Below, piece after piece: positions 2,164 through 54,464 of a stretch of DNA of 64,000 nt. Position numbers and translations under genes: made by a program. Source of the DNA: Squalus acanthias (Eukaryota). The stretch spans positions 158,350,001-158,414,000 of the forward strand of contig CM059431.1 in assembly GCA_030390025.1 (NCBI GenBank). Direction: 5' to 3'. The notes beneath the pieces were generated by a model that was given only the letters and a program-made list of their open reading frames with translations, was not told where the DNA came from and searched no databases. Each line of letters begins with the position of its first letter. Position 1 is the first letter of the stretch.

Positions 2164-2333
2164 CTTATGAATTGTTTCAGTAAACACGTTTGCATCTAAG
2201 AGCGATTGACTAACAGCTTCCACGAATTCTTCAATGGACGATTCTAGTCTCTGACGGTAGCAGCCGATAATTCTTCCAAGCTGGATATCCGTGTAGATCG
2301 CCAACATTAGTAACATTTTAGTCTCTGAATGTT
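2164..2333 (-). CDS. Exon B copy 1 (170 nt, phase 1 to 0): first half of an NLR-type N-terminal death-fold-like domain, EHSETKMLLMLAIYTDIQLGRIIGCYRQRLESSIEEFVEAVSQSLLDANVFTETIHK
   Basis: Acceptor tttacacttttacag|, donor AAG|gtatgc, open frame. The YRQRLESSIEE.VE motif resembles the YRDRLEQAIEEGVE-type N-terminus of shark NLRP3-like proteins (from recall, not a search). Confidence 0.8.
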
Positions 2334-4357
2334 CTGTAAAAGTGTAAATGAGAACAGGTTACAATACTATGTTTGCTTTGAAGCAATGAATAATTTGAAC
2401 TAACTTTTAGAGCAGCAGCTTTTCTTTAGAGCCTTTCAAACAGTGAGACGGCCAATGGCGCCTCACAGAGCAGGAATTTAGAGTTAAAGCTGCCTCTTTT
2501 TCGTAGAGTTAAGAGAAACGACCTAGATCTTGCAACATGTGGAGGTTGTTTGAAGTAAGTAGGAAGTAAAGAGTGAAAGCCCAAGGGAACGGATTCCAGA
2601 CAGTGGTGCTAACGACTTTGTTGGAGTCTGGAGCAGAGGAACCAATAATCTGGGGACCACAGCAAAGGGAGAGGATGGACCAGAAATAAAAGAGGGTTTC
2701 TGAAGAAGACTGCAAAATTAAGACGCTCGAGACCGTTAAGGGAATTGTAGATGATTAGGAGTCTTTCACAAATTGTCTGGGATAGGAAGTGAATGTAGGT
2801 CACCGACGAATGGGATTATGGATAAGTGGTACTGAGGGTGAATTGATGAATTTAAGCAGTCGAGCCCTGGAGATTCTATCTGGCCGTGCCCAAAAGTCGT
2901 TTAAGGAATTGAGTCTAAACCTCACAAAAGCGTATCTAAATCACGAGAAAATGTTCATATGTTATCATATATGCAGAAAATTAAAATATGATGGTTGCGG
3001 ACGGTGATCTCAGAATCCATTCGAAATTTATTGCTTGGAATCACTAGATGCTGCTGAGCAATTAGAAATAGTCGTGACTGTCGCTTGTTAGCCTAAAGAG
3101 CTAATAAATAATGCACAGATAGTTAAAGAAAGTAACAGTAAATGCAAGCTCATTCCTTCTTTCTTGGGAAAACTAAACTGCGATACAGACCGGTGAAATT
3201 GAAATACTGTGAATCTAAATGTACTCAAAATAATTTGATAGATATCAATACAACAATTACAAGAACACACCATTGGGATAAAGTTATTGATATCAAATTG
3301 AAATAATAATTAAATCTCAAATACCACATCTGAAACATGACAATAGCTGGTAGGAATCATAATTGAATGTACCTGATTCTAAAATGCCTATCGATGGAAG
3401 TAGAAAGACCTGCGAGATACTAAATAAAGAACGGCCCGGAAATAGTGGTCAGCGCGAAGCAAAGGCATTTGCTGCGGCCACAAAGTAAGCTTGACACAAA
3501 GATCTCGCAATCAGGTTTTCCGAATTGTAATTCAAATCAACGGAGCATCATTGGGAATCCCGAGTGCAAGCTGCTGTGAAGTCAACAGGCTGTCTAAGCA
3601 TCCAACCAAAACGCAGAATTCTCACAGACAGCGAACAAGGAAGTGAATAAGCTGTTAAACTTCTAACATTTAAAACAATGATTGGGCGAACGAAACAAAT
3701 ATTGGGGCTCTAACATGGGGAAAATGCAAAGCAGAAATAAGGAGGAAAAATCCTTTAAAATAATTACATTTTCATAATAATGTTAATTTTTATTGAATTG
3801 AATAAAGTTGTCTCTGCACAAAATTTAAATTAGATTTTCTGGCCATCACATTTGTTTAGAATTCAATACGCTGTTGCAATCCAGTTACACCCTTCCCTTT
3901 CAGTCAAACTTTTAGTGGGGAATTCAAGAGCACAATTAATGTGAAAGAGCCGAAGATTACATCACTTTCAATGATTTGAGAGATTTCCCTGATTACCAGC
4001 TTTGGGTGGGCACAGCGCAGCCTCTGCCATTTTATTGGAGTCAAAGGATGGGAACATAGGACCGAGCGAACAACGGGCAGCAGATGCAATACCGGCCGTT
4101 TTTCGGCGAGGCCAAAACACAGGCCGTATCGCATCCATCGACTGTTATACGCTGCGTCCGAATAAACTTGAATTGAGCTGAATATCGGGCGTGTGTGTAA
4201 CTATCGGCAAATGTTAACCGGCCATTGTGTGTCCCCGACAATTAGAATTTCATCCTCCTGGACATTAACTTAAAATAAGTTCCTCGACATAAATAATGAA
4301 CTCTCTTACTCTGAAAGTAAACGAGATCTTTTGCAATTAGATTTTGACATCGCCTAC

Positions 4358-4556
4358 CTTCTTGATCATGTTTTGTCCCTGTATCTCTGTTCAGTATCTC
4401 TGACAATGTCGCTTTCAGTTTGGGTTTTGTACTCTGCAGTTGAAGAAATATGTTCCACATTGTTCTTTCTCCCCGAGCTCCCTTTTCCAGCACGGTATCG
4501 AAAATGCGTTGGGAAGCATCGTTTCTGCGCGAACTTTCAGCAAGTGTACTGATTTC
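4358..4556 (-). CDS. Exon A copy 1 (199 nt, phase 0 to 1): second half of the domain plus linker, EISTLAESSRRNDASQRIFDTVLEKGARGERTMWNIFLQLQSTKPKLKATLSEILNRDTGTKHDQEG
   Basis: Acceptor atgtttttag|GAA, donor GAAG|gtaggc conserved in all three copies, open frame. Resembles the VMEKGSRARRVMWESF...PKLDKILKEI motif of shark NLRs (from recall). Confidence 0.8.
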
Positions 4557-6023
4557 CTAAAAACATATTGCAATCATATTGAAAAAAAGTATTTTACAAA
4601 ATCAGCTAAGAAACGTCGGTTTTGTTTCTCCCTCTCTTTATGGGAGGAATGAATAGCCAAACTCACAATCAGGTGACCAAAATCTATGTCAGCGAGATAA
4701 GTTATAATAAGCGTCACTAAAGAGCAGGGAATGCCAGACGGCCGGTGAGGATTACAGAGTTCATTCCACAGTTTAGGACCGAGGCAGCACAACGCACGGC
4801 TACCAATGGTGGCGTGAAGAGAATCGGGGTTGCGCAATGGTGCAGAATTTGACGAGCACCGGGATCACGGAGGACTGTAGGGCTGGAGGATGTTGCAGAG
4901 ATAGAGAGGACCAGCGTTGAGTCACCGAGGGTAGCTGAATTTTCTCAACTGATATGAAAAAATGTTAAGTGCCAAATAAAAGTGGAAAGGTCAGATTTCA
5001 AGAAAATGGTTCGTGCAAAATGAAGCATTATTTGTTGTTAGTAACAGCAATGTTCTGGAAAGTTCACAACGTGCTTTTAGAAACTCAAACTGCACAGATC
5101 GTAAAACAATGCGGGTGAAATTGGAATCGGCCAGTCGCATGACAGGTGCTGATAGCGAATGGGCGGCTCGTGTTACACGCATCCGTATTTCTTTACCATT
5201 GATTGCAATTAGAATTCCGTTCATTTCAAGTATCATTCACCGAAACAGCAGCACAAGCTTTTCAGTCAATCCTTCATCTTCTATATGAACAATTTGCTTT
5301 GAATACCTGAAGAGTTCTGTCTTATGAGTAACTATTTTATTTGAAGTGTTTATGAAATGTGATCATTGTCCCGAATTCTGTCTCATGCCAATCACCAAAT
5401 CCTTAAACTGTTAACGTGTTACCATCTGCTCGTTAACCTCTATGTTTCTTTGATTTGATTTATATAATCAACCCCCTACATTCAATTTGTAAATCTCCAT
5501 GTCATTTCCTTTTCTATGCACATCCAAGTAATTCTTGTATGTGCTCCACCCGTTTTATTATCGTGTAATTCCTATATATCGTATCGCAATCATTTCCTTC
5601 TTGGTACCTTCGTATTGCTTCCCGACGGAATTATCTGATCCATTCCGTCCCAATATATCTGGGCTAGTGTGTTCTTGATTTGTTGAAATTTGTTATCCTG
5701 TACATATATATTGCTTTGATTTACTGTTCTTCTGAATTCTAATGATATCATTGCTTCTTAGATATCCGTTATCCGTTTGCAGTTATGGATCCAATACTCA
5801 TTCCTTCCCTGTTGTTCTGGAAACGTACCCATCTATCTCACGTCCTGGATACGTGGCAGATAGCACACTCCCTCTTCCACCCGTACATCACTTCTATACT
5901 TTAGATAATTTAAGTCCCCCATATCTCTGATACGCTCGCTAAAATGTCTCCATTTTTTAATATATCGCTTCCTCAATTCGTGACCCACCACATGTGAATG
6001 AAAATGAACCCCTCATAGTTAAT

Positions 6024-6841
6024 GGCCAGGTTTTTCGATCGCAGGAATCCCGGGTGCGCAGGTTTGCAATCTAGAAAAATCTACGCCCTTATCTTCGGGT
6101 TCCGGGGACGCACACGATTCCTATCCTGGGCCTCTCCAATCTCCACTTGCGCAGGGCCCTAATATCCCAGAGGCACAGGCAGATTACAGGGAGCATGGGT
6201 TCATGTTGGCCATGCGGAGCTAATCAAAGTAGGGAAACTGCATTCATACACTTGACAGGAAGACCTTTCAAATATATGAATGGAGATCACCCCAAAAACA
6301 TAGTGGCCCAGAAATTCCTTTCGCAGGCCGTCCGCGGGCGGAGGACTGCGATCTGGAAAAATCTGTGCCTGTACCGGAGGGGTCCCGGGAGGCGCAGAGT
6401 TCCGTTGCTTGGTCTCTCCAAACTTCCGGTGCGCAGGGCCCACGTATCCCAGAGGCGCAGGCGGTTCGCAGCGTCCCTGGGATCACGTAGGGAGCCAATC
6501 AGAGAAGGGATTCTCCCTTCATACATTTGACAGGAAGACCTGTCAAATATATGAATGGAATTCACCCCCAAACATAGTAAAAGCACGCCTTAGCCCTGCT
6601 TTTACCAGGCATACGATTTCTAATGGTTTTCTGCAGGCGTGGGTTCTCCAGACAGCGGAACTATCCGTCCGCAGAGGACCTTCTCCAGGCTAGGCGTCCA
6701 ATCTGTCAAGAGCATTCTTGACAGATCGGAAATTACGGATTTCAGCGCATGCGCTCGGCATTCCAAAAACCGGCATTTCCGATGTCCCTGCGGTTGTGTA
6801 CACAGCGCGTACACACCCGTAAGGATCGGAATATCCGGCCC
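6024..6841. mobile_element. MITE C, related to MITE A, with an internal ~280-bp duplication; other copies at 13693-14510 and 34835-35653
   Basis: Imperfect TIRs ggccaggtttttcgatc...gatcggaatatccggcc(c) flanked by ttaat/attaa. Shares internal motifs with MITE A (cgcagggccc, tatgaatggagatcacccc, cagcgcatgcgc). Confidence 0.65.
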
Positions 6842-8353
6842 ATTAACGCCAGCTCCCAGCCGTGCGCTTACATTAACCATGTCTTCATATCATAACTTCC
6901 TAGAGCATCATCAGACAATCGCTTCATTCAACTAATCAGCTTTATTCACCATGCTTTATTAATATATGTGTTACATAACTTCAGAAAATATTCGAAAAGG
7001 GATCAGATAGACATCATGGATGAGACTCGGAATTTTATTTTAAATAGGACATGATGGCTGTCATGACTGGAGATGCGGGAATGTTATGTCCCAGAGTATT
7101 GGGGAGAAGAATGAAGGTGAAGTCTTAAATTTGCATAACCCATGGACTGGATGAATTTTGCGAGTGCTTGGTGAGACGTAGAATAATGCAGATATTTGGA
7201 GGTTGTTAATTATAAATAATAACTGTGGCAGGGAAGTTGGTAGATAGGCAGGTAGAATCAGCCATGCAGTGAAGTTGGAAGGAGAAAAGAAATGGAAGCA
7301 ACGACTTGGATATGTTCAGTAGAAAGTTCTAGAAATTGGTGCCACCAGCAGTGACTCACACGACTCGTCTCGTTTAATTAAAATGCTCGTCTGCTTTGCT
7401 AAAAAACGGACAGAATTTCTCGGCCCTGAGCGACAGCTTATTTTAAATATGTCAGTTAATTTCTCTTCCTGAGATTAGATATATGTGGCTATTAGATGTT
7501 CTATATAGCTCCAGGATATCCATTGGGTCTTTGCTGAGGACGCGTGATGCTTGTGATGCTAGTGGTATCTTATTCAAATATTCATTACAATATTTGGCCC
7601 GTAATTTCCGTTAGGAGGCTTCCTGCGTGCGCATGCCTCCTATCGGGAAGAAATCTGCGCCCTTACCTGAGGGCTCCCGAGGAGGAGCCATTTCCGATCC
7701 TGGGCCTGTCCACAGTAGAAATGCGCAAGGCCCACCTGAACCCAGGGACGCTTGCGAAGCTCGTGAGCCCCTGAGGTAGGTGGACAGGCGAGAGAATAGA
7801 AGGGAATCTCCCTTCATACCTTTGAAGATAGACCTGTCAAAGGTATGAATGGAGATCACCCCAAAAACAAATCAAAACAATAAATACATTATTAAAAAGC
7901 ATCGCGTTTTTAAAATGAGTAACATTTATATTAATTTAAATATTTTAAACAAAAATGTAATGTTTTGAAAAAGAAATTAAAGATTTTAACGGATCTAAAA
8001 TTATATTTACCGTATTTAGAAGTACTTTAACATTATAATTGAGTGAAAAAATGTATATTTTTTTACTTTTTTAAACTCTTGTGCTGGGAAAAGCAGGCCT
8101 TACGTCTGCTTTTACCAGGAGTACGATTTTTAAGTGTTTTCAAGAGCGGATGTCCTGCAGCAAGCGGAAATCTCCACCCGCAGAGGCCCTTCTCTGGGGC
8201 AAGCGTCCGATCTGTCAAGATGATTCTTGACAGATCGGAAATGCCAGTTTTCAGCGCATGCACTTCGCATGCCTGAAACCGGCATTACCGATGTCCCAAC
8301 GGGTGTGTACACAGCGCGTACTCAAACGTAGGCATCGGAAAATACGAGCCATT

Positions 8354-9085
8354 TTCCCAGAAATTAAACATCGATGGTTACCGCGGGGGTAAGGATTCCC
8401 CGCAATATCGCAATCCTCGCCTACCTTTTTGTTTCGGGCCCACAGGAAGTTCAGTTTCAGCGACTCTCCCTGTTGCAACCGAGCAGTGCTTGCGTGTCCC
8501 TGAGGCGCAATTAGTTCGTACGAGCTCTGGAATCACGTGATTCAGTTACAGCCAATGGCAGCACACCATCTTTCATTCATAGTTTTGACAGCAAGGGCTG
8601 TCAAAGCTATGAATACTACAAGACCCCAAAATAACAGCTAAACCTCAATTAAATTTTAAAAAAGCCATCACTTTAATACAATAACTATAGTTAAATAAAT
8701 TAAACATCTTAAAAAAAAATTAAATTTTGAAAAAATTTAAAATCTTTTTAAAAGTTATAAAAATAAACTTACCTTTCTTTAAATTCTCGAAAAAAGATAA
8801 ACCTGTTGAAAAAAATTTAAAATAACACTTAATGTACTACTTACCTTTTTAAAAGGGGGTCTTGCGCCTGCTTTATTTATGTGTAAAATCTTCACCACTT
8901 ACCTGCGCGTTCAAACCGGAAAAAAAAACTAAGTGCACTGTTCACTTACGAACCGCCCCCTTTGCAATACACGAAGTGCCGTTTTCCCGCGCATGCGCAG
9001 TGCATACAGGAAACCGGTAATTCGGGACCGAATACGCGAGAGTGCACAGTGCGTACTCTCGCGTATTCGGTCTAACTTTCTTGCC
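8354..9085. mobile_element. MITE B, directly after MITE A; other copies at 16746-17479 and 37090-37795; absent from unit 1
   Basis: TIRs ggcccagaaatta...taattttcgggcc flanked by ATT on both sides (units 3 and 4). Unit 1 shows the empty site cgagcc-ATT-gtgtcttgg at 1418-1420. Confidence 0.8.
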
Positions 9086-9831
9086 AATGTGTCTTGGCGT
9101 GTTCCTTGCAATCCTGAAATTTGGATGAATTGCTCCTTGGATAGGATGCCATTTATGTCCGATTACAGAAACAACAGTAACCCGAATCCCTGCAGAAATA
9201 CGGCCAAGGTAAATAGCTTAACTGCAAGACGTTTTCCAGTGAATTATCAGTTGATTAGAGAGTCTCTTTCTGCAGATGGTTTTAGCATGTCACTTATGCG
9301 GCACAAAAATTATTTGCTAATTATCCACCAAAACTGGCATGTTGACCAGTTCTTGTTGCATACGGGCATGGAATGTTTAGTTACCTGAGGAATTGGGAAT
9401 GGAATTGAACACTGCAATCATCAGTGTACAACCCAAATGCTGACCGTATGACAGAAAAAAATGAATTGATGATGCAGCTGACGATATTTGGGTCGAGGAT
9501 TCTTCCACGATGAACTCATGGTTATAACATGAGATGCTGTTCTCTTGTTATTTAACGCATTAAAAACCTCAAGTTCAGTTTCCTTTGAGACGATATTAGC
9601 TGTAATCTAAGAGCACGTAAAAGGGTGGGCCGTGAGAAGGTTGTTATCATCCACCCCATGGCTATCAAGTCCTCGCACCACCACACCTTCGCCGCGAACA
9701 TAAAGGCGCCAGAGAATACAACCTTTACAGCAGCAAAGCCATGCCGTTCCAGACCGACTTGAACAATCTCCCACCAACCCGTCTCAAATTTCTGAGGCCA
9801 TTTAGACAATTCCAACATATATGTAGCATAC

Positions 9832-10001
9832 CTTATGAATTGTTTCAGTAAACACGTTTGCATCTAAGAGCAATTGACTAACAGCTTCCACGAATTCTTC
9901 AATTGACGATTCTAGTCTCTGACGGTAGCAGCCGATAATTCTTCGAAGCTGGATATCCGTGTAGCTCGCCAACATTAGTAACATTTTAGTATCTGAATTT
10001 T
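9832..10001 (-). CDS. Exon B copy 2 (170 nt, intact)
   Basis: Same AG/GT sites as copy 1; open frame MLLMLASYTDIQLRRIIGCYRQRLESSIEEFVEAVSQLLLDANVFTETIHK. Confidence 0.8.
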
Positions 10002-12026
10002 CTGTAAAAGTGTAAATGAGAACAGATTACAATACTATGTTTGCTTTGAAGCAATGCACAATTTGAACTAACTATTATAGCAGCAGCATTTCTTTAGAGC
10101 CTTTCAAACAGTGAGACGGCCAATGGCGCCTCACAGAGCAGGAATTTAGAGTTAAACTGCCTCTTTTTCGTAGAGTTAAGAGAAACGACCTAGTACTTGC
10201 AAAATGCGGAGGTTGTTTAAAGTAAGTAGGAAATAAAGAGAGGAAGCCTAAGGCAACGGATTCTAACCAGTGGTGCTGACGACTTTGTTGGAGTCCGGAG
10301 CAGAGGAACCAATAATCTGGGGACCACAGCAAAGGGAGAGGATGGACCAGAAAGAAAAGAGGGTTTCTGAAGAAGACTGTAGAATTAAGACGCTCGAGAC
10401 CGTAAAGGGATTTGTAGATGAGTAGGAGTCTTTCACAAATTGTCTGGGATAGCAAGTGAATGTCGGTCACCGACGAATGGGATTATGGATTAGTGGAAAT
10501 GAGAGTGAACTGATGAATTGAAGCAGTCGAGCTCTGGAGATTCTATCTGGAAGTGCCCTTAAGTCGTTTAAGGAATCGAGTCTCAACGTCACAAAAGCGT
10601 ATGTAAATCAGGAGCAAATATTCATATGTTATCATATATCCAGAAAATTAAAATATGATGGTTGCGGACGGTGATCTGAGAATCCATTCGAAATTTATTG
10701 CTTGGAATCACCAGATGCTGCTGATCAATTAGAAATAGTCGTGACTGTCGCTTGTTAGCCTAAAGAGCTAATAAATAATGCACAGATAGTTAAAGAAAGT
10801 AACAGTAAATGCAAGCTCATTCATTCTTTCTTGGGAAAACTAATCTGCGATACGGACCGGAGAAATTGAAATACTGTTAATCTAATTGTACTCAAAATAA
10901 ATTTGATAGATATCAATACAACAATTACAAGAACACAACATTGGGAAAAAGTAATTGATATCAAATTGAAATAATAACTAAATCTCAAATACCACATCTG
11001 AAACATGACAATAGCTGGTAGGAATTATAATTGAAAGTAACTGATTCTAAAATGCCAATCGATGGAAGTAGAAAGACCTGAGAGATACTACATAAAGAAC
11101 GGCCCGGAATCAGCGGTCAGCGCGAAGCAAAGTCATTTGCTGCGGACACAAAGTAAGCTTGACACAAAGATCTCGCAATCAGGTTTTCCGAAGTGTAATT
11201 CAAATCAACCGAGCATCATTGGGAATCCCGAGTGCAAGCTGCTGTGAAGTCAACAGGCTGTCTAAGCATCCAACCAAACCGCAGAATTCTCACAGACAGC
11301 GAACAAGGAAATGAATAAGCTGTTAAACTTCTAACATTTAAAAAAAATGATTCAGCGAACGAAACAAATATTGGGGCTCTAACATGGGGAAAATGCAAAG
11401 CAGAAATAAGTAGGAAAAAGCTTTTAAAATAATTACATTTTCAGAATAATTTTAATTTTTATTTAAATGAATAAAGTTGTCTCTGCACAAAATTTAAATT
11501 AGATTTTCTGGCCATCACATTTGTTTAGAATTCAATACGCTGTTGCAATCCAGTTACACCCTTCCCTCTCAGTCAAACTTTTAGTGGGGAATTCAAGAGC
11601 GCAATTATTGTGAAATTGCCGAATATTACATCAGTTTCCCTGATTTGAGAGATTTCCCTGATTACCGGCTCTGGGTGGGCACAGCGCAGCCTCTGAAATT
11701 TTATTGGAGTCAAAGGAAGGGAACATAGGACCGAGCGAAGAACAGGCAGCAAATGCAATACCTGCCTATTTTCGCCGAGGACAAAACACAGGCCTTATCA
11801 CATCCATCGCCTATTATATGTTGCGCGCGAATAAACTTGAATTGAACTGAATATCGTGCGTGTGTGTAACTTTCGGCAAATGTGACCCGGCCATTGTGTG
11901 TCCCCGACAATTAGAATTTCATTCTCCTGGACATTAACTTAAAATATGTTCCTCGACATAAATAATTAATTCTCTTACTCTGAAAGTAAACGAGATCTTT
12001 TGCAAATAGATTTTGACTTCGCCTAC

Positions 12027-12225
12027 CTTCTAGATCAAGTTTTGTCCCTGTACCTGTCTTCTGTATCTCTGATAATGTCGCTTTCAGTTTGGGTTTTGTA
12101 TTCTGCAGTTGAAGAAATATGTTCCACATTGTTCTTTCTCCCCGAGCTCCCTTTTCCAGCGCGGTATCGAAAATGCGTTGGGAAGCATAGTTTCTGCGCT
12201 GACTTTCAGCAAGTGTACTGATTTC
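12027..12225 (-). CDS. Exon A copy 2 (199 nt, intact)
   Basis: Conserved splice sites; open frame EISTLAESQRRNYASQRIFDTALEKGARGERTMWNIFLQLQNTKPKLKATLSEIQKTGTGTKLDLEG. Confidence 0.8.
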
Positions 12226-14771
12226 CTAAAAAAATATTGCAATCATATTGAACAGAGTATTTTACAAAATCAGCGAAGAAACGTCGTTTTTCTTTCTCCC
12301 TCTCTTTATGGGAGGAATGAATAGAAAAGCTCACAATCAGGTGACCAAAATCTATGTCAACGAGATAAGTTATAAGGAGCGTCTCTGAAAAGCAGAGAAT
12401 GGCAGACGGCCGGAGAGAATTACAGAGTTAATTCCAGAGTTTACGACCGAGGCAGCACAACGCACGGCTACCTATGGTGGCCTGAAGAGAATCGGGGTTG
12501 CGCAATGGTTCAGAATTTGATGAGAGCAGAGATCACGGAGGATTGTAGGGCTGGAGGATATTGCAGAGATAGAGAGTACCAGCGTTGAGTCACCGATGGA
12601 AGCTGAATTTTCTCAACTGATATGAAAAAATGTTAAGTGCCAAATAAAAGGGGAAAAGTCAGATTTCAGGAACATGCTTCGTGCAAAATGAAGCATTATT
12701 TGTTGTTAGTAACAGCAATGTTCTGGAAAGGTCACAACGTGCTTTTTGAAACACAAACTGCACAGATTGTAAAACAATGCGGGTGAAATTAGAATCGGCC
12801 AGTCGCATGACAGGTGCTGATGGCGAATGGTCGGCTCGTGTTACACGCATCCGTATTTCTTTACCAGTGATTGCAATTAGAATTCCGTTCATTTCAAGTA
12901 TCATTCATCGAAACAGCAGCACAAGCTTATCAGTCAATCCTTCATCTTCTATATGAACCATTTGCTTTGAATACCTGAAGAGTCCTGTCTTGTGAGTAAC
13001 TATTTTATTTGAAGTGTTTATGAAATGTGATCATTGTCCCGAATTCTGTCACCTGCCAATCACCAAATTCTTAAACTGTCAACGTTTTACCTTCTGCTCG
13101 TTAACCTCTATGTTTCTTTAATTTGATTTATATAATCAACCCCCTACATTCAATTTGTAAATCTACTTTTAACTTACTTTTCTATGCACATCCAAGTAAT
13201 TCTTGTATGTGCTCCACTCGTTTTATAATCGTGTAATTCCTATATATCGTATCGCAATCATTTCCTACTCGGTTCCTTCGTATTGATTCCCGACGGAATT
13301 ATCTGATCCATTCCGTCCCAATATATCTGGGCTAGTGTGTTCTTGATTTGTTGAAATTGCTTATCCTGTACATATATATTGTTTTGATTTACTGTTCTTC
13401 TGAATTCTAATTATATCATTGCTTCTTAGATATCCGTTATCCGTTTGCAGAAATGGATCCAATACTCATTCCTTCCCTGTTGTTCTGGAAACGTACCCAT
13501 CTGTCTCACGTCCTGGATCCGTGGCAGATAGCACACTCCCTCTTCCACCCGTACATCACTTCTATACTGTAGATATTTAAAGTCATCCATATCTCTGATA
13601 CCCTCGCTAAAATGTCTCCATTTTTTCAATATATCGCTTCCTCAATTCGTGACCCACCACTTGTGCATGATAATGAACTCCTCATAGTTAATGGCCAGTT
13701 TTTTCCATCGCAGGAATCCTGGGTGCGCAGGTCTGCAATCTGGAAAAATCTACGCCCTTAACTTAGGGATCCCGGGACGCACACGATTCCGATCCTGGGC
13801 CTCTCCAATCTCCACTTGCGCATGGCCCTATTATCCCAGCGGCACAGGCAGATTACAGGTTGCCTGGGATCATGTGGGCCATGGGGTCCAATCAAAGTAG
13901 GAAAACTACATTCATATACTTAAGAGGAAGACCTGTCAAATATATGAATGGTGATCACCCCAAAAACATAGTGGCCCAGAAATTCCTTTCACAGGCCGCC
14001 CGCGGGCGGAGGACTGCGATCTGGAAAAATCTGTGCCTGGACTGGAGGGCTCCCGGCGGGCGCAGAGTTCCGTTGCTTGGTTTCTCCAAACTTCCGGTGC
14101 GCAGGGCCCACGTATCCCAGAGGCGCAGGCGGTTCGCAGCGTCCCTGGTATCACGTAGGGAGCCAATCAGAGAAGGGAATCTCCCTTCGTACATTTGACA
14201 GGAAGACCTGCCAAATATATGAATGGAATTCACCCCCAAAACATAGTAAAAGCACGCCTTAGACCTGCTTTTAGCAGGCAAAACATTTCTAAGGGTTTTC
14301 TGCAGGCGGGGGTTCTCCAGAAAGCGGAACTGTCCGTCCGCAGAGGACCTTCTCCAGGCTCGGCGTCCAATCTGTCAAGAGCATTCTTGACAGATCGGAA
14401 ATTACGGATTTCAGCGCATGCACTTGGCATGCCTGAAACCGGCATTTCCGATGTCCCTACGGTTGTGTACACAGCGCGTACACACCCGTAAGGATCGGAA
14501 TATCCGGCCCATTAACGCCAAGTTCCCAGACGTGCGCTAACATTAACACGTAGGTGTTAATGTCTTCATATCATAACTTCCTAGAGCATCATCAGACAAT
14601 CGCTACATTCAAGTAACCAGCTTTATTCACCATGCTTTATTAATATATGTGTTACGTAACTTCAGGAAATATTCGAAAAGAAATCAGATTGACATCATGG
14701 ATGAGACTCGGAATTTTATTTTTAATAGGACATGATTGCTGTCATGACAGGAGATGCCGGTAATGTTGATT

Positions 14772-15508
14772 ATTGGTTATTGCTAGGGGGATAGAATATA
14801 AAAACAGGGAGGTATTGCTGCAGTTGTATAGGGTATTGGTGAGACCGCACCTGGAGTACTGCATACAGTTTTGGTGTCCATACTTAAGAAAAGACATACT
14901 TGCTCCCGAGGCAGTACAAAGAAGGTTCACTCGGTTAATTCCTGGGATGAGGGGGTGGACATACGAGGAGAGGTTGAGTAGATTGGGACTCTTCTCATTG
15001 GAGTTCAGAAGAATGAGAGGCGATCTTATTGAAACATATAAGATTGTGAAGGGGCTGTATTGGGTGGACGCGGTGAGGATGTTCCCAATGATGGGTGAAA
15101 CTAGAACTAGGGGACATAAACTTAGAATAAGGGGATGCTCTTTCAAAACTGACATGAGGAGAAACCTTTTCACTCAGAGGGTGGTGGGTCTGTCGAATTT
15201 GCTACCCCAGGAAGCTGTGGAAGCTACTTCATTAAATAAATTTAAAACAGAAATAGACCGTTTCCTAGAAGTAAAGGGAATTAGGAGTTACGGTGAGCGG
15301 ACTGGAAATTGGACATGAGTGAGTTCGGATCGGTCAAGGCCCTGTGGATGGCGGAGCGGGCCCAGGGGCCGAGTGGCCGGATCCTGCTCCTACTTCTTGT
15401 GTTCTTTAGAGATGAGGTTGGATCAGATAAGCCATGATCTCATTGAATGGTGGAGCAGGCACGAGAGGGCCGATTGGTCTACTCCTGCTCCTATTTCTTA
15501 TGTTATTA
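14772..15508 (+). mobile_element. 5'-truncated CR1 LINE (RT C-terminus and 3' UTR), present only in unit 3
   Basis: ORF 14773-15318 has LYRVLVRPHLEYCIQFWCP...RRMRGDLIETYKI...TRGH motifs; CR1-type 3' ends; candidate TGATT duplication at 14767-14771 and 15509-15513. Confidence 0.92.
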
Positions 15509-18225
15509 TGATTTCCCTGAGCATTGGGCAGAAGAATGAACGGGAAGGCTTAAACATGCGTAACTCATGGACTGGATGAATTTTGTGAGTGCTTGGTGAG
15601 ACGTAGAATAATGCAGATTTTATGAGGTTGTTAATTATAAGTAATCACTGTGGCAGGGAAGTTAGTATATAGGCAGGTAGAATCAGCCATGCAGTGAAGT
15701 TGGAAGGAGAAAATAAATGGAAGCAACGACTTGGATGTGTTCAGTAGAAAGTTCTAGAAATTGGTGCCACCGGCAGTGACTCACACGAATCGTCTCGATA
15801 AATTAAAATGCACGTCTGCTTTGCTAAAGAACGGACAGAATTTCTCGGCCGTGAGCGACAGTCTATTTTAAATATGTCAGTTAATATATTTTCCTGAGAT
15901 TAGATATAAGTGGCTATTAGTTGCTCTATCTAGCTCCAGGATATCCATTGGGTCTTTGCTGAGGACGCGTGATGCTTGTGCTACCAGTGGTTTCTTATTC
16001 AAATATTCATTACCGTTAGGACGCTTCCTGCGTGCGGATGCCTCAATCGGGAACAAATCTACGCCCTTACCTGAGGGCTCCCGAGGAGGAGCCATTTCCG
16101 ATCCTGGGCCTGTCCACAGTAGAAATGCGTAGGGCCCACCTGATCCCAGGGACGCTTGCGAAGCTCGTGAGCCCCTGAGATCGGTGGACAGGCGAGAGAA
16201 TAGAAGGGAATCTCCCTTCATACCTTTGAAGATAGACCTGTCAAAGGTATGAATGGAGATCACCCCAAAAACAAATCAAAACAATAAATACATTTTTACA
16301 AAGTATCGCGTTTTTATATTGAGTAACATTTATATTAATTTAAATATTTTAAACAAAAATTTAATGCTCTGAAAAAATATTTAATGATTTTTTTCCGAGC
16401 TAAAATTAAACATACTTTATATAGAAGTACTTTAAAATTATAAGTGAGTGAAAAAATAAATATTTTTTTAGTTTTTTAAGCTCTTGTGCTGGGAACGCCT
16501 CCTTTTACCAGGAGTACGATTTTTAAGTGTTTTCAAGAGCGGATGTCCTGCAGCAAGCGGAAATCTCCACCCGCAGAGGCCCTTCTCTGGGGCAAGCGTC
16601 CGATCTTCAAGATGATTCTTGACAGATCGGAAATGCCGGTTTTCAGCGCATGCGCTTCGCATGCCTGAAACCGGCATTACCGATGTCCCAACGGGTGTGT
16701 ACACAGCGCGTACTCACACGTTGGCATCGGAAAATACGAGCCATTGTCCCAGAAATTAAACATCGATGGTTTCCGCGGGGGTAAGGATTCCCCGCGTAAT
16801 CGCACTCCGCCCCGACCTTTTTGTTTCAGGCCCACACGAACTTGAGTTTCAGGGCCTCTCCCTGTTGGAACCGTACAGTGCTTGCGTGTCCCTGAGGTGC
16901 AATTAGTTCGTGCGAGGTCTGGGATCACGTGATTCAGTTATAGACAATGGCAGCACTCAATCTTTCATTAATATTTTTGACAGCAAGCGCTGTCAAAGCT
17001 ATGAATATTACAAGCCCCCAAAAGAACAGCTAAACCTCAATTACTTTTTTTAAAAATGCCATCACATTAATAAAATAACTATAGTTAAATAAATTAACCA
17101 CTTTAAAAAAAAGTTAAATTTTGAAAAAATTTAAAATCTTTTTAAAAGATATAAAAATAAATTTACCTTTCTTTAAAGTCTCGAAAAAAGATAAACCTGT
17201 TGATTTTTTTTTAAATTAACACTTAATTAACTACTTACCTTGTTAAAAGGGGGTCCTGCGCCTGCTTTCTTTATGTGTAAAATCTTCACAACTAAACTGC
17301 GCGTTCAAACCTGAAAAAAAAACTTAGTGCACTGTTCACTTAGGAACCGCCCCCTTTGCAATACACGAAGTGCCGGTTTCCCGCGCATGCGCAGTGCATA
17401 CAGGAAACTGGAAATTCAGGACCTATTCCGCGAGAGTGCACAGTGCGTACGCTCGCGTATTAGGTCTAATTTTCGGGCCATTGCGTCTTGGCGTGTTCCT
17501 TGTAATCCTGAAATTTGGATTAATTGCTCCTTGGATAGCATGCCATTTATTTCCGATTACAGAAACAACAGTAACCTGAATCCCTGCAGAAATACGGCCA
17601 AGGTAAATAGCTTAACTGCAAGACGTTTTCCAGTGAATTATCAGTTGATTAGAGAGTCTCTTTCTGCAGATGGTTTTTGCCTGTCACTTATGCGGCACAA
17701 ATGTTACTTTCTAATTATCCATCAAAACTGGCATGTTGTCCAGATCTAGTTGCATACGGGCATGGACTGTTTAGTTACCTGAGGAATTGGGAATGGAATT
17801 GAACACTGCAATCAGCAGCGTACAGCCCAAATTCTGACCGTATGACAGAAAAAAAATTATTGATGAAGCAGCTGACGGTATTTGGGTCGAGAATTCTTCG
17901 ACGTTGAACTCATGGTTATAACATGAGATGCTGTTCTCTTGTTATTTAACACATTAAAAACGACAAGTTCTGTTTCCTTTGAGACGATATTAGCTGTAAT
18001 CTAAGAGCACGTGAAAGGGTGGGCCGTGAGAAGGTTGTTATCATTCACCCCATGGCTTTCAAGTCCTCGCACCACCACACCTACCCCACGAACATAAAGT
18101 CGCCAGAGAATACAACCGTTAAACCAGCAAAGCCATGCCATTCCAGACCGACTTGAACAATCTCCCACCAACCCGTCTCATATTTAGGAGGCCATTTAGA
18201 CAATTCCAACATATATGTAGCATAC

Positions 18226-18396
18226 CTTATGAATTGTTTCAGTAAACACGTTTGCATCTAAGAGCGATTGACTAACAGCTTCCACGAATTCTTCAATCTG
18301 ACGATTCTAGTCTCTGACGATTGCAGCCGATAATTCTTCCAAGCTGGATATCCGTGTAGCTCGCCAACATTAGTAACATTTTAGTATCTGAGTTTT
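18226..18396 (-). pseudogene. Exon B copy 3 (171 nt) with a +1 frameshift
   Basis: cttcaatctgacg at ~18291-18303 versus cttcaat(g/t)gacg in copies 1 and 2; splice sites retained. Confidence 0.75.
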
Positions 18397-20423
18397 CTGT
18401 AAAAGTGTAAATTTGAACAGGTTACAATACTATGTTTGCTTTGAAGCAATGAATAATTTGAACTAACTTTTAGAGCAGCAGCTTTTCTTTAGAGCCTTTC
18501 AAACAGTGAGGCGGCCATTGGCGCCTCACAGAGCAGGAATTTAGAGTTAAAGCTGCCTCTTTTTCATAGAGATAAGAGAAACGACCTAGTACTTGCAACT
18601 TGTGGAGGTTGGTTAAATTAAGTAGGAAGTAAAGAGTGGAAGCCCAAGGCAACGGATTCCAGCCAGTGGTGCTGACGACTTTGTTGGAGTCCGGAGCAGA
18701 GGAACCAATAATCTGGGGACCACAGCAAAGGGAGAGGATGGACCAGAAATAAAAGAGGGTTTCTGAAGAAGACTGAAAAATTAAGACGCTCGAGACCGTA
18801 AAGGGAATTGTAGATGAGCAGGAGTCTTTCTCAAATTGTCTGGGATAGCAAGTGAATGTAGGTCACTGACGAATGGGATTATGGATAAGTGGAAATGAGG
18901 GTAAATTGATGAATTGAAGCAGTCGAGATCTGGAGATTCTATCTGACAGTGCCCAAAAGTCGTTTAAGGAATCGAGTCTAAACCTCACAAAAGCGTATCT
19001 AAATCACGAGAAAATATTCATATGTTATCATATATCCAGAAAATTAAAATATGATGGTTGCGGACGGTGATCTGAGAATACATTAGAAATGTATTGCTTG
19101 GAATCACCAGATGCTGCTGAGCAATTAGAAATAGTCGTGACTGTCGCTTGTTAGCCTAATGAGCTAATAGATAATGCACAGATAGTTAAAAAAAGTAACA
19201 GTAAATGCAAGCTCATTCCTTCTTTCTTGGGAAAATTAAACTGTGATACGGACCGGAGAAATTGAAATACTGTGAATCTAAATGTACTCAAAACAAATTT
19301 GATCGATATCAATACAACAATTACAAGAACACACCATTGGGAAAAAAGTTATTGATATCAAATTGAAATAATAATCAACTCTCAAATACCACATCTGAAA
19401 CATGGCAATAGCTGTTAGGAATTATAATTGAATGTACCTGATTCTAAAATGCCTATCGATGGAAGTAGAAAGACCTGAGAGATACTAAATAAAGAACGGC
19501 CCGGAATTAGCGGTCAGCGCGAAGCAAAGGCATTGGCTGCGGCCACAAAGTAAGCTTGACACAAAGATCTCGCAATCAGGTTTTCCGAAGTGTAATTCAA
19601 ATCAATGGAGCACCATTGGGAATCCCGAGTGCAAGCTGCTGTGAAGTCAACAGGCAGTCTAAGCATCCAACCAAAACGCAGAATTCTCACAGACAGCGAA
19701 CAAGGAAGTGAATAAGCTGTTAAACTTCTAACATTTAAAAAAAATGATTGGATGAACGAAACAAATATTGGGGCTCTAACATGGGGAAAATTCAAAGCAG
19801 AAATAAGGAGGAAAAATCCTTTAAATTAATTACACTTACAGAATAATGTTAATCTTTATTTAAATGAATAAAGTTGTCTCTGCACAAAATTTAAATAAGA
19901 TTTCCTGGCCATCACATTTGTTTAGAATTCAATACGCTGTTGCAATCCAGTTACACCCTTCCCTTTCAGTCAAACTTTTAGTGGGGAATTCAAGAGCACA
20001 ATTACTGTGAAAGAGTCGAAGATTACATCAGTTTCGCTGATTTGAGAGATTTCCCTGATTACCGGCTCTGGGTGGGCACAGCGCAGCCTCTGCAATTTTA
20101 TTGGAGTCAAAGGAAGGGAACATAGGACCGAGCGAACAGTGGGCAGCAGATGCAATACCAGCCGTTTTTCGGCGAGGACAGAACACAGGCCGTATCGCAT
20201 CCATCGCCTATTATATGTTGCGCGCGAATAAACTTGAATTGAGCTGAATATCGGGCGTGTGTGTAACTATCGGCAAATGTGACCCAGCCATTGTGTGTCC
20301 CCGACAATTAGAATTTCAACCTCCTGGACATTAACTTAAAATAAGTTCCTCGACATAAATAATGAACTCTCTTACTCTGAAAGTAAACGAGATCTTTTGC
20401 AATTAGATTTTGACATCGCCTAC

Positions 20424-20622
20424 CTTCTAGATCAAGTTTTGTCGCTGTATCTCTGTTCTGTATCTCTGACAATGTCGCTTTCAGTTTGGGTTTTGTATTC
20501 TGCAGTTGAAGAAATATGTTCCACATTGTTCTTTCTCCCCGAGCTCCCATTTCCAGCAAGGTATCGAAAATGCGTTGGGAAGCATCGTTTCTGCGCTGAC
20601 TTTCAGCAAGTGTACTGATTTC
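20424..20622 (-). CDS. Exon A copy 3 (199 nt, open); its upstream partner exon B is missing because unit 4 is truncated
   Basis: Conserved splice sites; EISTLAESQRRNDASQRIFDTLLEMGARGERTMWNIFLQLQNTKPKLKATLSEIQNRDTATKLDLEG. Confidence 0.75.
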
Positions 20623-21480: not shown

Positions 21481-23122
21481 TGTAGAATTCGCAATATATC
21501 GCGATTTTATAATAAGGAGAAAACACAGAGTTTCGTTCAAACAGCTTTTATTTCAGCAGAATGCTGTCAGGTTTTTCAAAGTGGACACAAGCAGCCTGTA
21601 AAATGGCCGCCGCACCTCGTGGCAGAACATTCTAGACTTTTCGACAGGCAGACAAGATGGCGTTCCAATAAACATTTGTGCAAGATCGATTAAGATTCAG
21701 CACATTGAAGATAATACACGAGACATTGTGGGTTTGCAGTATACACATAAATACTGAAATCGGTCTCCCAGGTACGAATGAAAGCTATTGTACCAAGTAA
21801 TCAAGGGCCCATCCAAAGACATTAATATGTAAAATCCCAATGACTCTACGATGAGAGAGCCGTTAGCGGGTAGTTATACAAAACACTTGGAAGCCCCAAA
21901 ACCCCTCCAGGGAGAACACCGACCGATTTAGCAATGAGAGAAATATTAACAGGTACTCAGGCATTTACGAGTAGCACCGAAACCCATTAAGAACGGAGAT
22001 CACCCATACAAGACATTTGAGCGCCAAACCCAAACAAAAGAAAGGCATTAAGGTTGGGCGGGAAACGGAAGATTTTGTACTATAATTACAAGCTCCAACC
22101 GTCCATTTTTCTCTTATCCGATCGACTCGTATCCTCGTGGCTGCTCCTGTGTTTTGACTCGCCGTCTTGTTCCTGCTTGCTTGGTGTCTCTTTTAAAAAG
22201 ACTGTTGAACTTTGTGATCCGTTCGGATCCACCTCGTGTCGTGTAACGAAGACCTATGTTGGTAACTGGCATCGGAACCGAAGGCCCGAGATGAGATGAG
22301 ATGAGATGAGATGAGATGAGAAGAGAGGAAGACCATACTTATCGCCATGGTCAGTAAGCCCCGACCGCGCCAGTAGGTCGAATAGCCAAGTTTCCTTGCC
22401 AGGGAGACTTCTTTGAACTTGCAAGAACGGACCTCGGAAGATCCTCCAAGAAGATATTGACTGGTCTGTGAAACCCATCAGGATAGTGCCTGCTAAACCA
22501 ACCAACACAGATCTTCATCACAGCAGACGTTCCAGCCTGCTAGCCGGAGCAGAAGCAAGTAAACAAGTGGGACCAGGAGACCCCCTGATCGACACGTGGG
22601 TGCTGCGGTAAAACCATCCGATCAGCTACTCGGAATTTCTCCGAGTTATCACGAGTGGTGAGCATGAGTCTCGAATCCTACGAATCTAGCTAGGACAGAT
22701 ATTGATAGGGGAGGGTTTAAGTATTAAGGATACTTGTAATGTGTGCCCCTATTTACGGTGTGTCGTTCGTTCCTCGTTTCCCTAGAATTAGCTATATAAC
22801 TGCGTGTAAGATTGTACTGTCATTAATCTGTGCTTATGACATGTATTTCGTAATCTTAAATATCATGCAATAAAGATTTTCCATTTCGTACCATTCAACC
22901 GAGTCTACATGAGTTTCATCTCCATTACTGCTCTCGCATCTAAGTCCAGTGTCTCGAACCGTAAGGGCGAGTGATTCGAACCACTCACAGGTGTGTCTAG
23001 TGCTCCCAGACTGGTTGGAGACCAGAACAGGCAACAAGGCCTAAACCCGCACTGACATACAGGCTGCACAGAGCCGCGCGAATCTCACAGGCTGAGAGAC
23101 ACGCACGCCAAAATCCCTTACA
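21481..23122 (+). repeat. 5' LTR (1642 bp)
   Basis: tgtagaattc...cccttaca. GC box ~22056, TATA-like tataatta ~22081, (ATGAG)6 at 22291-22320, AATAAA at 22869-22874. Confidence 0.97.
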
Positions 23123-23126
23123 GAAA

Positions 23127-24935
23127 ATGGCGACCGCGGCAGGACACTGGCAGCGAGAGGGTAGTGTGTTAGACTTTGGAATGACTGTACGAAATGTTAT
23201 GCAGGAAAAGATAGCAGATTATGTGTTCGGAAAGGTTAATCTAACTAAGAAATGGATAAGTGAATTGTTAGCGGATAAAAGTCCACTAGAGGCAGCCGAA
23301 AGGTGGACGGATAGTAAAGAACATAAAAAGACACTCGAGAAAGCAGTCTGGCTAATGTGTTACAAAAGGCAGGTCCAGATTTCAAACCAGACCATTACAG
23401 CGCTAACAGCTCGAATCAGGCATTTAGAGGGAGAAATGGATGAGAAGGTTTCTGGAGGGGAATTGCTCATTAGGAATTTAAGTGCGGTGCACCAAGAACG
23501 CCAGGAAATCTCCAGTCACCATAAAACAAGGATAGATTACCTCGAGTGCCAGGTCACTGAGGCAAAGTTAAATGAGGGCAGGTTAAAGGAACGATGTGCC
23601 CGCCAAGCTGCCCAGATAAGAACTCAGGAAGAGAGCTTAACGGGGGTTCGGGCGGAATATAAGTTGGCCCTTGAGGATAAGTTTCAGGGAGCCGATCATA
23701 GCGCCTGCCAAAGGGAGATAGAGCACCTCAAAAGGGCCGTGAACAAAGCGCACGGCATGGTGTGCCTTATCAGTCCGTCAGCACACCAGCCGCTAGTAAA
23801 TGAGGAGTTTGACAAATCCCCACCAAGTAAAGCAGAGGAAGTATTAGCCACTGCGCCCTCCGCGCCACCCAGCTATTCGGAAACCTGGGTAAGGGAGGAA
23901 GCAATGGAAGAAACGAAAGAGCCCATTGAGAAAGAAATGGAAAAGGGACCGTTGTATCCAGTAACGGGTATAAAAAGGGGCCCAAACAGAAACGGTGGGG
24001 AGGAACCAGGGGATCTCCTCGGCCAGCTTGTGTTGCCTCACAGCTCACACCAGCTGAGAGTTAAGATAAATCACGTACGGAAGCTAACCGAGTCAGACGA
24101 CCCTTCCGTACATTTCAGAGAAGTTGAGCAAACCGCAGCCATCAACGGCTGCGACGATGGGGAAACAGCAAAAATGCTGTTATTTTCGTTAGGCAGTTCA
24201 ATCCTTCAGTGTCTCTCGGGTGAGAGCAAGAGGGGAACCAAGACTTATGAGGCATTAAAGAATGAGGTCCTGGAAGTGTTGGGGGCGGACGATGAAGGTC
24301 CGTTTGCTAGAGTGGGACAGACAGTGCAGATGGAGGGAGAACCCCCGAAGGTTTTTGCCGACAGGCTGTGGCCAGTATATCAGCGCAGCTGTCTAGGTGC
24401 GCCAGAGCGCGACGATGTGGAGGGCGCCAGTTTAGCTCATTGGCTTAGGTGCATAATAGCTAACAGTTTACCAGCCGTCAGAGAGCAGGCAAAAGCATGG
24501 TTTGATCCCAATGACCCCAACATTACGGAAGAGTCGGTCTTGAATCGACTCACGTTAGGATATCGCAATATAAGGGGTATGGCAACACGTCCCCTTAAGG
24601 GAAAAGTACATGAGGTACGACCCGCAGCCCCATATCAAAGAGAGTGGCATCAGGAGGGTAATCGCGCTCCACAGGCAAGTAATGCTTGTTACGGGTGTGG
24701 GAAGACAGGGCACTGGCGCAAGCATTGCAGGAACCCTTGGAAGGATTCCAAGGATAAAAATCCCGCAGCCCGAGCCCAGACGCCTGTCCCAGCTAGGGAA
24801 GCTGGTGCACCCACCCCTCCCGACGACATCGAAGTAGTGTTAGGAGCCATGCGCAGTTTATTGAGTGCACATGGAAAGGTGGCGGTTGCAACCGGCCCCG
24901 TAGGTGCCGCAGGACCGTCTAATAGAGCCCCATGA
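23127..24935 (+). CDS. gag: Gag (602 aa): coiled-coil N-terminal half, PSAPPSY late domain, capsid-like region, one CCHC zinc knuckle
   Basis: CYGCGKTGHWRKHC knuckle; position after the PBS; heptad-rich region at about aa 85-210. The true start may be a later Met. Confidence 0.92.
   Translation: MATAAGHWQREGSVLDFGMTVRNVMQEKIADYVFGKVNLTKKWISELLADKSPLEAAERWTDSKEHKKTLEKAVWLMCYKRQVQISNQTITALTARIRHLEGEMDEKVSGGELLIRNLSAVHQERQEISSHHKTRIDYLECQVTEAKLNEGRLKERCARQAAQIRTQEESLTGVRAEYKLALEDKFQGADHSACQREIEHLKRAVNKAHGMVCLISPSAHQPLVNEEFDKSPPSKAEEVLATAPSAPPSYSETWVREEAMEETKEPIEKEMEKGPLYPVTGIKRGPNRNGGEEPGDLLGQLVLPHSSHQLRVKINHVRKLTESDDPSVHFREVEQTAAINGCDDGETAKMLLFSLGSSILQCLSGESKRGTKTYEALKNEVLEVLGADDEGPFARVGQTVQMEGEPPKVFADRLWPVYQRSCLGAPERDDVEGASLAHWLRCIIANSLPAVREQAKAWFDPNDPNITEESVLNRLTLGYRNIRGMATRPLKGKVHEVRPAAPYQREWHQEGNRAPQASNACYGCGKTGHWRKHCRNPWKDSKDKNPAARAQTPVPAREAGAPTPPDDIEVVLGAMRSLLSAHGKVAVATGPVGAAGPSNRAP
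23128..23145 (+). promoter_or_regulatory. Primer-binding site, tRNA-Arg(TCG)
   Basis: TGGCGACCGCGGCAGGAC lies 5 nt after the LTR and is the 18-nt complement of the vertebrate tRNA-Arg(TCG) 3' end (...GTCCTGCCGCGGTCG-CCA) as I recall it. Confidence 0.85.
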
Positions 24936-32571: not shown

Positions 32572-32584
32572 CAACAGGAGGGAC
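32572..32584 (+). promoter_or_regulatory. Short polypurine tract
   Basis: caacaggagggac directly before the 3' LTR TG. Confidence 0.55.
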
Positions 32585-54460: not shown

Positions 54461-54464
54461 ATAT

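Follow-up and report, generated by a model that had tools for sequence, protein, structure and literature searches.

A broken tandem array of predicted CARD modules in Squalus acanthias, probably a dead copy from a shark and ray NLR subfamily with a putative membrane helix

Vertebrate NLRs are usually regarded as sensors located in the cytosol that carry one or two effector domains. In the available text of PMC5094078, all metazoan NLRs except the anthozoan ones are called cytosolic, and the accessible part of PMC13249360 describes a model in which the exposed CARDs of NOD1 and NOD2 recruit the adaptor RIP2 into CARD filaments. Membrane-bound NLR-like proteins are flagged in a sponge gene table (PMC3879445, as far as available), and an NLRP-related expansion has been described in the whale shark (PMC8455134, available portion). 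Here we report a tandem array of paired exons on the minus strand of a 64,000-nt stretch of the dogfish Squalus acanthias (assembly GCA_030390025.1, contig CM059431.1, here C7, positions 158,350,001 to 158,414,000), which we call the window. The array is probably a dead copy belonging to a shark and ray NLR subfamily, whose intact members would be laid out as membrane helix, a chain of n CARDs, NACHT and LRR.

Six exons of the array lie in the window, here given in minus-strand order:

20424..20622, minus strand: exon A3, 199 nt, phase 0 to 1, open; second half of a predicted CARD module
18226..18396, minus strand: exon B3, 171 nt with one extra base, frameshifted; first half of a predicted CARD module
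12027..12225, minus strand: exon A2, open
9832..10001, minus strand: exon B2, open; an inner in-frame acceptor gives 9832-9992 (161 nt)
4358..4556, minus strand: exon A1, open; B2+A1 make one complete predicted CARD module
2164..2333, minus strand: exon B1, open

All six have AG/GT ends, and their positions, canonical splice sites, complementary phases and order (A3-B3-A2-B2-A1-B1) are those first given by a first-pass annotation made from the letters of the window. The A exons measure 199 nt (phase 0 to 1) and the B exons 170 nt (phase 1 to 0), except for B3, whose 171 nt and frameshift leave five of the six exons open, again as first described. A2-B2-A1-B1 splice in silico without a stop, and A3-B3-A2 runs into one at codon 101. 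A3 is the first surviving exon of the array, its partner B being gone. The tandem repeat itself is real, with 90-94% identity among the DNA repeats around the exons, but the unit length of about 7.7 kb assigned to it needs correction: the spacings in the array are 8,397, 7,669 and 6,950 nt, and since seven of the eight spacings in a sister array fall between 6.1 and 6.9 kb, the base unit measures about 6.9 kb, with insertions accounting for the longer ones.

The proposal of one module per B plus A holds for the reading frame but not for the length of 123 amino acids. A second in-frame AG lies 9 nt inside B in 78 of the 83 B exons of our census, including all 18 that have no outer AG. (The census counts 83 B and 80 A exons in the genomic stretches analyzed; outside it lie C7 158.474-158.550 Mb, most of the 6-Mb cluster and the arrays at 153.7, 155.0 and 155.45-155.85 Mb.) This inner AG is the acceptor used by a paralog in RNA-like contigs, which come from three same-species runs of one study and are presumed to be RNA, and it also removes a junction stop in a nine-module sister array. 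It is the better-supported B acceptor, and the module then has 161 + 199 = 360 nt, or 120 amino acids. Both acceptors may nevertheless serve, because the window's three B exons carry both AGs and one B exon of a 17-module gene described below fails the inner-AG test though its outer AG is present. Of the three runs, two contain a 383-nt contig in which A, B and A are joined exactly at the exon ends, and all three show joints of B to A. The B parts of these contigs are only 83-87% like the compared genomic copies, and they therefore show tandem splicing in a paralog and have no bearing on the window copy; a genome search with the exact pattern of the contig paralog gave no match, the nearest A exon end being one base off.

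Spliced B2+A1 matches a profile of 25 shark NLR modules with an expectation value (E) of 9.4e-34, compared with 0.17 for the best of 200 shuffles, so the match is not due to chance. The same B, A and NACHT exons and phases recur in single-module NLR genes nearby. In one of these, at C7:159.46 Mb, exons resembling B (52% identical) and A (41%) are accompanied by a NACHT exon in the same phases, and its NACHT matches shark, ray and chimaera models named 'NLRP3-like'. Among the matches listed, A or B matches 105 of 120 shark NLRP3-like proteins, bearing out the proposed likeness to the N-terminal domain of these proteins. When 25 aligned shark modules were folded with AlphaFold2 (first row P0005), a helical bundle was predicted with a predicted local distance difference test score (pLDDT) of 93.3 and a predicted template-modelling score of 0.86, and this homolog model has an additional N-terminal helix. 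The best structure in VIA-align of the model was the NLRC4 CARD (Z 11.9, root-mean-square deviation 3.0, 89 aligned), the ARC CARD scored Z 11.6 with a deviation of 1.5, and the first death-domain entry appeared at rank 34 (Z 8.3); Foldseek likewise placed CARDs in its top rows, none at E <= 0.001. The Pfam CARD family (PF00619) matches 10 of the 25 homolog modules at E <= 1 (best 1e-4; the first member scores 21.2 bits against a cut-off of 23.9), and an Atlas comparison of exon A points to CARD clusters at a score of 0.81-0.85, a weak match. There was no match to Pfam for single window exons, nor to homologs among longer proteins for exon A alone, which is a short query, and a PDB sequence search with the module profile returned nothing better than E 0.2. 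Each two-exon unit is predicted from the homolog model to encode a CARD rather than a PYD, in keeping with the death fold expected for it; elasmobranch models titled 'NACHT, LRR and PYD' carry PYD in the name, whereas their module is modelled as a CARD.

As anticipated, the array runs on past the window's left edge. Left of B1 the order is A, B, A, B (with a stop codon), A, B, A, and the whole array has 7 A and 6 B exons, the last A ending at C7:158,320,810. The NACHT exon that had been expected left of the window is absent from the 133 kb left of the last A: C7:158,187,000-158,320,000 shows no NACHT or module match at E 0.05, bar a weak B-like one (E 0.05) at its far edge, and the array has no in-frame downstream NACHT by which it could itself be classed as an NLR. 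In place of NACHT there is a predicted transmembrane exon:

C7:158318659-158318531, minus strand: hydrophobic exon H, phase 1-1, 2.15 kb past the last A

The last A joins this H in frame by a predicted splice, and the read-through ends shortly past H. Over 45 kb, the sequence beyond the last A runs colinear with what lies ahead of the first B in sister genes; a role for this H as an array-specific C-terminal anchor was accordingly rejected, since the exon belongs to a duplicate of the gene's 5' block. Some 480 nt past H, a frame of 25 codons borders DNA like the A-to-B intron and for this reason was not counted as a tail exon. Farther left, 134-157 kb from the array, a two-module NLR lies at C7:158,186,531-158,162,248 (minus strand), with a NACHT of the ordinary DGL-type clade.

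The other end of the array is also disrupted, as the remaining features show:

21481..34226, plus strand: endogenous retrovirus in the intron upstream of A3, with long terminal repeats (LTRs) at 21481-23122 and 32585-34226
34227..38261, minus strand: remainder of the B-to-A intron; likeness to sister arrays ends at about 38261 (breakpoint)
38523..64000, plus strand: 5' block of the gene, inverted relative to the array and continuing to about window position 92,383
46009..46137, plus strand: exon H, 129 nt, phase 1 to 1, AG/GT; predicted membrane anchor

The breakpoint falls about 450 nt short of the expected first B exon. The sequence of the inverted block agrees to 98% with that upstream of the 9-module sister array, and the block ends without a B exon. 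Its exon H contains an ATG, 27 uncharged residues up to a Cys-Cys-Trp motif and then basic residues; in sister genes, copies of H precede the first B in the same orientation as the arrays. No H or CARD exon in the array's own orientation was found within 103 kb upstream, and with the first B missing and the 5' block on the opposite strand, the array is cut off from its start. There are no assembly gaps in 473 kb around the window. Among the RNA-like contigs none covers H or the short frame behind it, which has no bearing on expression. A block common to the upstream regions of several arrays was tried as a first exon and rejected as a repeat, and a second conserved block upstream of H has no shared reading frame.

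The inserted element is a young endogenous retrovirus, with LTRs that differ at 14 of 1,642 nt and a 4-nt target duplication, and it is not found at the corresponding place in four sister arrays. Its frames comprise a long one in the gag position, a stop, a frame for protease, reverse transcriptase and RNase H, and an open 789-codon frame in the env position; an in-frame stop lies between the zinc finger and the core of the integrase. The inverted block also holds a 27-nt G-rich satellite, strongly skewed in both GC and AT (window 54464-63887, about 353 copies that match at 70%), and a similar satellite is present in the 5' block of sister genes. At window 38523-38799 there are four copies of a 69-nt unit, in which the minus strand reads a TATA-like box and then a splice-donor-like motif; such units are shared with the upstream region of a sister array, and we take them to be probably the 5' end of a long interspersed nuclear element (LINE).

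The array has many relatives. A genome search with B2, in which 150 of 260 candidates were scored, gave at least 110 matches at E <= 4.4e-10, and all but two of these (108) fall in the interval 153.7-159.3 Mb of C7. Three sister arrays have the same NACHT-less ending, with 9A/9B, 6A/7B and 5A/5B exons beside the 7A/6B of the window array, which is the variation in domain number with a preserved frame that had been predicted for gain and loss of units. Two sister arrays contain exons that are 97-99% like several of those in the window, and along the window array the match changes from sister to sister; such a mosaic order is as expected from unequal crossover or gene conversion and agrees with the unequal-crossover origin proposed earlier. 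In sequence grouping, the window exons fall with the three other NACHT-less arrays and with a gene of the order H-(BA)3-NACHT-LRR at 154.01-154.06 Mb. Further arrays end in one NACHT subtype:

154.03 Mb: 3-module array, H upstream, NACHT broken
158.57 Mb: 5-module array, NACHT broken
158.03 Mb: 9-module array, NACHT broken
C7:154.573-154.716 Mb: 17-module gene, 34/34 module exons open, 614-aa open NACHT frame, two LRR exons

Several paralogs have broken NACHT exons. In the 17-module gene, NACHT scores 113 bits against Pfam, with matches to the winged helix and HD2 and an intact Walker A, and the two LRR exons follow 1.5-2 kb past it. By its gene sequence, this intact paralog is an NLR, having NACHT with Walker A, winged helix and HD2, then LRR exons. 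Its modules (154.61-154.71 Mb) are rich in cysteine, with 45 Cys in 34 exons versus 8 in 13 in the window array, which may bear on their location. Two broken NACHT copies, 92% alike, face each other at C7:158,125,866 (plus) and 158,104,532 (minus) beyond the 9-module array on the plus strand, which itself has all 18 exons open. The NLR family of this genome is very large: a first look gave 481 NACHT candidates, many of them on C7, C29 and small contigs, and all 95 that were scored exceed the Pfam cut-off.

A profile search of 1.84 billion representatives returned 136 matches, among them models from other sharks and rays with up to four modules. The model from Mustelus asterias, XP_078087540.1 (P0125), has a signal-peptide-like stretch (N-termini were judged by eye), a short ectodomain, a helix, three modules, NACHT and LRRs, a layout that fits the H-(BA)3-NACHT-LRR gene. 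Its helix ends in Cys-Cys and basic residues and is the best match to H, a weak one (41% over 29 residues, E 0.58). The models from sawfish, devil ray and stingray start in a signal-like manner, possess ectodomains of low complexity and carry a helix ahead of NACHT. The catshark Scyliorhinus torazame model XP_072354261.1 (P0270) reads signal-like start, four modules, helix, one module, NACHT, and a basking-shark model (P0171) reads two modules and then a helix, with no NACHT; a single-sequence fold of P0171 reached a pLDDT of 41 and was not used. At C7:157.34-157.36 Mb, the order is a short hydrophobic exon, B-A-B-A, a long hydrophobic exon with internal charges, and B. The helices of this locus and of the catshark and basking-shark models contain an internal acidic residue.

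In a NACHT tree (no anthozoan row), 22 rows of shark and ray models and genomic NACHTs form a clade with support of 1.0, and with 100 in the Shimodaira–Hasegawa-like approximate likelihood ratio test in a smaller, quick tree (P0197 left out). A helix-like stretch before NACHT occurs in 8 of 16 public clade members, compared with 1 of 159 outside. The Walker B motif also sets the clade apart: DGLDE is found in 144 of 162 rows outside it, whereas clade members mostly have Asp for Gly, as in DDLDQ of the 17-module gene. The helix of H comprises 26-27 uncharged residues with a mean hydropathy of 2.7-3.1 in six window-type copies, and public models are similar. Because charges in the window-type copies are −2 to −3 before the helix and +3 to +4 on its C-flank, a cytosolic C-side is favored. 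From these features we infer that the intact paralogs are single-pass membrane proteins, with one helix, basic on its C-side, upstream of CARD and NACHT.

Expected numbers of disablements, calculated as distinct alleles times stop and indel rates, are rough; compared with them, the 17-module gene shows 0 versus 23.1 expected (P about 1e-10) and a 9-module gene 0 versus 10.2. The NACHT-less sister arrays show 0 each versus 3.4 and 3.9 (P 0.034 and 0.019), and the window array shows 2 versus 4.7 (P 0.16), which is indistinguishable from neutral decay. Exon divergence is below flank divergence in five of five sets. Within arrays, the ratio of nonsynonymous to synonymous substitution rates (dN/dS) is 1.47 in the window array (31 non-independent pairs) and 1.69 in one sister.

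The disabling lesions of the window array are the frameshift of B3, the stop in a B exon left of the window, the loss of the first B and the inversion of the 5' block. On account of these four lesions, the array is probably a pseudogene, and the idea that it forms the working 5' part of a receptor is not supported. A likely history can be proposed. On the predicted splicing, B+A and H start as well as end in phase 1, in which the NACHT exon also starts, so that unequal crossover could add, drop or swap units without a frameshift. A duplication may have put a second 5' block (H and its intron of about 45 kb) in the place of NACHT, giving rise to the four NACHT-less sister arrays. In the window copy, the 5' block would afterwards have been inverted, the first B lost, the intron entered by the retrovirus and two exons disabled. 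In intact members, H would splice to the first B, putting the helix at the membrane and the CARDs and NACHT in the cytosol. By analogy with NOD1/NOD2 and other CARD proteins, a covalent chain of CARDs might seed filaments of adaptor or caspase CARDs at high local concentration, and the number of units might tune signal strength or partner range.

Several observations weigh against this reading, some against the death of the window copy and others against the layout of the family. As many as 11 of the 13 exons of the window array are still open, and its exons differ less (0.050) than the flanks (0.076), so the array may have died recently or not at all. Pooled dN/dS, from non-independent pairs, is 0.64-0.83 between families and 0.62-0.96 in intact arrays, suggesting weak amino-acid constraint even where the frame is kept. 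The folded homolog is 60% and 48% identical to B2 and A1, and it was not the window's own module that was folded. No joints of H to B, A to H or A to NACHT occur among the contigs, the layout being that of genome order and automatic models. Half of the public clade members (8 of 16) show no helix, three of these starting at the NACHT exon. No H exon was found in 73 kb upstream of the 17-module gene, nor was a signal-peptide or ectodomain exon found upstream of window-type H.

The strongest competitor to a dead copy, although an unlikely one, is that the array still works as a NACHT-less, membrane-tethered CARD chain, a decoy or scaffold in the manner of the primate CARD-only proteins, made from an unfound promoter, with in-frame skipping of the broken modules and a C-terminal anchor supplied by H. 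The in-frame splice from the last A to H, with read-through ending soon after, would suit such a product, as would the clean frames of the two sister NACHT-less arrays mentioned above, the 9-module one being open to the helix with the inner acceptor, and the two modules, helix and lack of NACHT in basking-shark P0171. However, those sisters may just be young copies of an intact gene, and the basking-shark model may be incomplete, since its catshark counterpart continues to CARD and NACHT. The array itself lacks a first B, has no H or CARD exon in its own orientation within the 103 kb upstream and has lost the phase-0 donor for A3, and its dN/dS of 1.47, from non-independent pairs, also speaks against function. 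Less probable still is an assembly artefact. The inversion or the whole extra array would then stem from a second haplotype or from the misjoining of near-identical duplicates, and the true locus would be intact. In favor of this, the inverted block and the DNA upstream of the 9-module array, 0.5 Mb off, agree to 98%, and several exons are 97-99% like those of two sisters. Yet the 473 kb around the window are free of gaps, exon matches switch between sisters so that no single sister matches throughout, and the copy has private features, namely the frameshift, the stop and a retrovirus with a clean target duplication.

A working NLR with its NACHT left of the window is very improbable, even though NACHT does stand at the end of paralogs that have 3 to 17 modules and the two-module NLR lies on the same strand with a first B-like exon that would be phase-compatible if its phases are those of the single-module gene. 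The intervening DNA contains no NACHT or module beyond the weak B-like match at its edge, the left-hand gene belongs to another NACHT clade and has modules of its own, and a frameshift and a stop lie upstream. That the units are, across the whole family, segmental duplicates of non-coding or long-dead DNA is hardly credible. That dN/dS comes close to 1 or exceeds it in some arrays (0.96, 1.47, 1.69) and that several paralogs have broken NACHTs could be read in this way, but the 17-module gene keeps 34 of 34 exons open against about 23 expected disablements, exons diverge less than flanks in every set, the contigs have exact exon-to-exon joints, and multi-module models exist in other sharks and rays.

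Beyond the dead copy, a broader proposal may be offered, tentatively and as one that we consider doubtful: sharks and rays would have single-pass membrane NLRs with a CARD cassette repeated 1 to 17 times on either side of the membrane, and NACHT-less arrays, including that of the window before it broke, would be tethered decoys or scaffolds. Cytosolic chains (helix - CARDn - NACHT - LRR) might then pre-assemble a signaling filament, and CARD ectodomains (signal - CARD x2-4 - helix - CARD - NACHT - LRR) could bind extracellular CARD filaments from dying cells. Judged from automatic models and hydropathy, CARDs before the helix would lie outside the cell if the N-termini of the catshark, the basking-shark and the 157.34-157.36 Mb proteins are cleaved signal peptides.

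Other genes and models found along the way have related architectures. Genes with two hydrophobic exons, of common ancestry, lie at C7:157,363,490-157,338,791, C7:156,666,346-156,626,620 and C2044:261,784-286,650; the leading exon is short and signal-peptide-like, and the other encodes a longer helix. The two are separated by 2, part of 1, or 0 CARD modules, and CARD exons follow, joined by NACHT at 156,666,346-156,626,620 and C2044. P0246 (Polypterus) and P0316 and P0317 (Denticeps) have butyrophilin-like immunoglobulin (Ig) domains joined to NACHT, and P0246 has a helix and a weak module match; these models may represent a second type of membrane NLR or fused genes. P0219 (Arctogadus glacialis, 1,254 aa) has 8 Pfam CARD stretches and 2 death domains and is apparently a separate poly-CARD protein. 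P0230 (lamprey), P0240 and P0250, weak matches to the module profile, are tumor necrosis factor receptor-like with a C-terminal CARD-like stretch.

If true, a clade that combines a helix, an altered Walker B and anywhere from 1 to 17 CARDs would represent another design of NLR and a natural series for how CARD number sets the threshold of filament nucleation, and extracellular CARDs would be stranger still. The family would surprise an NLR specialist. The window copy is probably non-functional itself yet a clear case of family turnover by module gain and loss, NACHT loss, inversion and retroviral insertion. The closest relatives are the elasmobranch NLRP3-like models XP_078087540.1 and XP_072354261.1, which share the same two-exon module, a NACHT of the clade with Walker B Asp and a helix before NACHT, with 3 and 5 modules. 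Public elasmobranch models reach 4-5 modules, whereas the dogfish genome has arrays of 9 and 17, and the window copy is NACHT-less and broken. The literature search, which covered neither most subscription journals nor supplements, found nothing on CARD arrays or membrane helices in shark NLRs, and the available part of the whale-shark study (PMC8455134) mentions neither.

Among more distant systems, we note resemblances of three kinds. With respect to the membrane, anthozoan NLRs (PMC5094078) and the sea-cucumber proteins AjNLRC4 and AjNLR-new (PMC13133943) are described, in the available texts, as combining NACHT with transmembrane segments, as in the shark family. However, the anthozoan proteins have 3-5 N-terminal helices (PMC5094078) and the sea-cucumber proteins pair Ig domains with NACHT (PMC13133943), whereas the shark family has one helix, CARDs and LRRs and belongs to a jawed vertebrate. 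The shark proteins are not of the anthozoan type, having one helix and at most one short N-terminal hydrophobic stretch, and their NACHT nests among shark NLRs in a tree that has no anthozoan row. With respect to loss of the effector part, primate CARD16, CARD17 and CARD18 arose by duplication of CARD exons from a parent gene in the same cluster and are possible decoys (PMC7555848, available text). These are single soluble CARDs from caspase-1 (PMC7555848), and the shark modules are not of their kind, deriving from shark NLR N-termini and standing in chains between hydrophobic exons. With respect to repetition, zebrafish NLR-B30.2 proteins also show a large expansion with repeated, shuffled N-terminal units (bioRxiv 10.1101/022061, as far as available), but those repeats are peptides of about 30 amino acids beside at most a PYD-type death fold (10.1101/022061), whereas the shark repeat is a whole two-exon predicted CARD. 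Tandem CARDs before an ATPase sensor are also found in NOD2 and RIG-I/MDA5 (PMC13249360; for RIG-I, PMC8455134; both in part). There the CARDs are two, fixed and cytosolic, whereas in the shark family they number 1 to 17, vary among young duplicates and stand behind a predicted helix.

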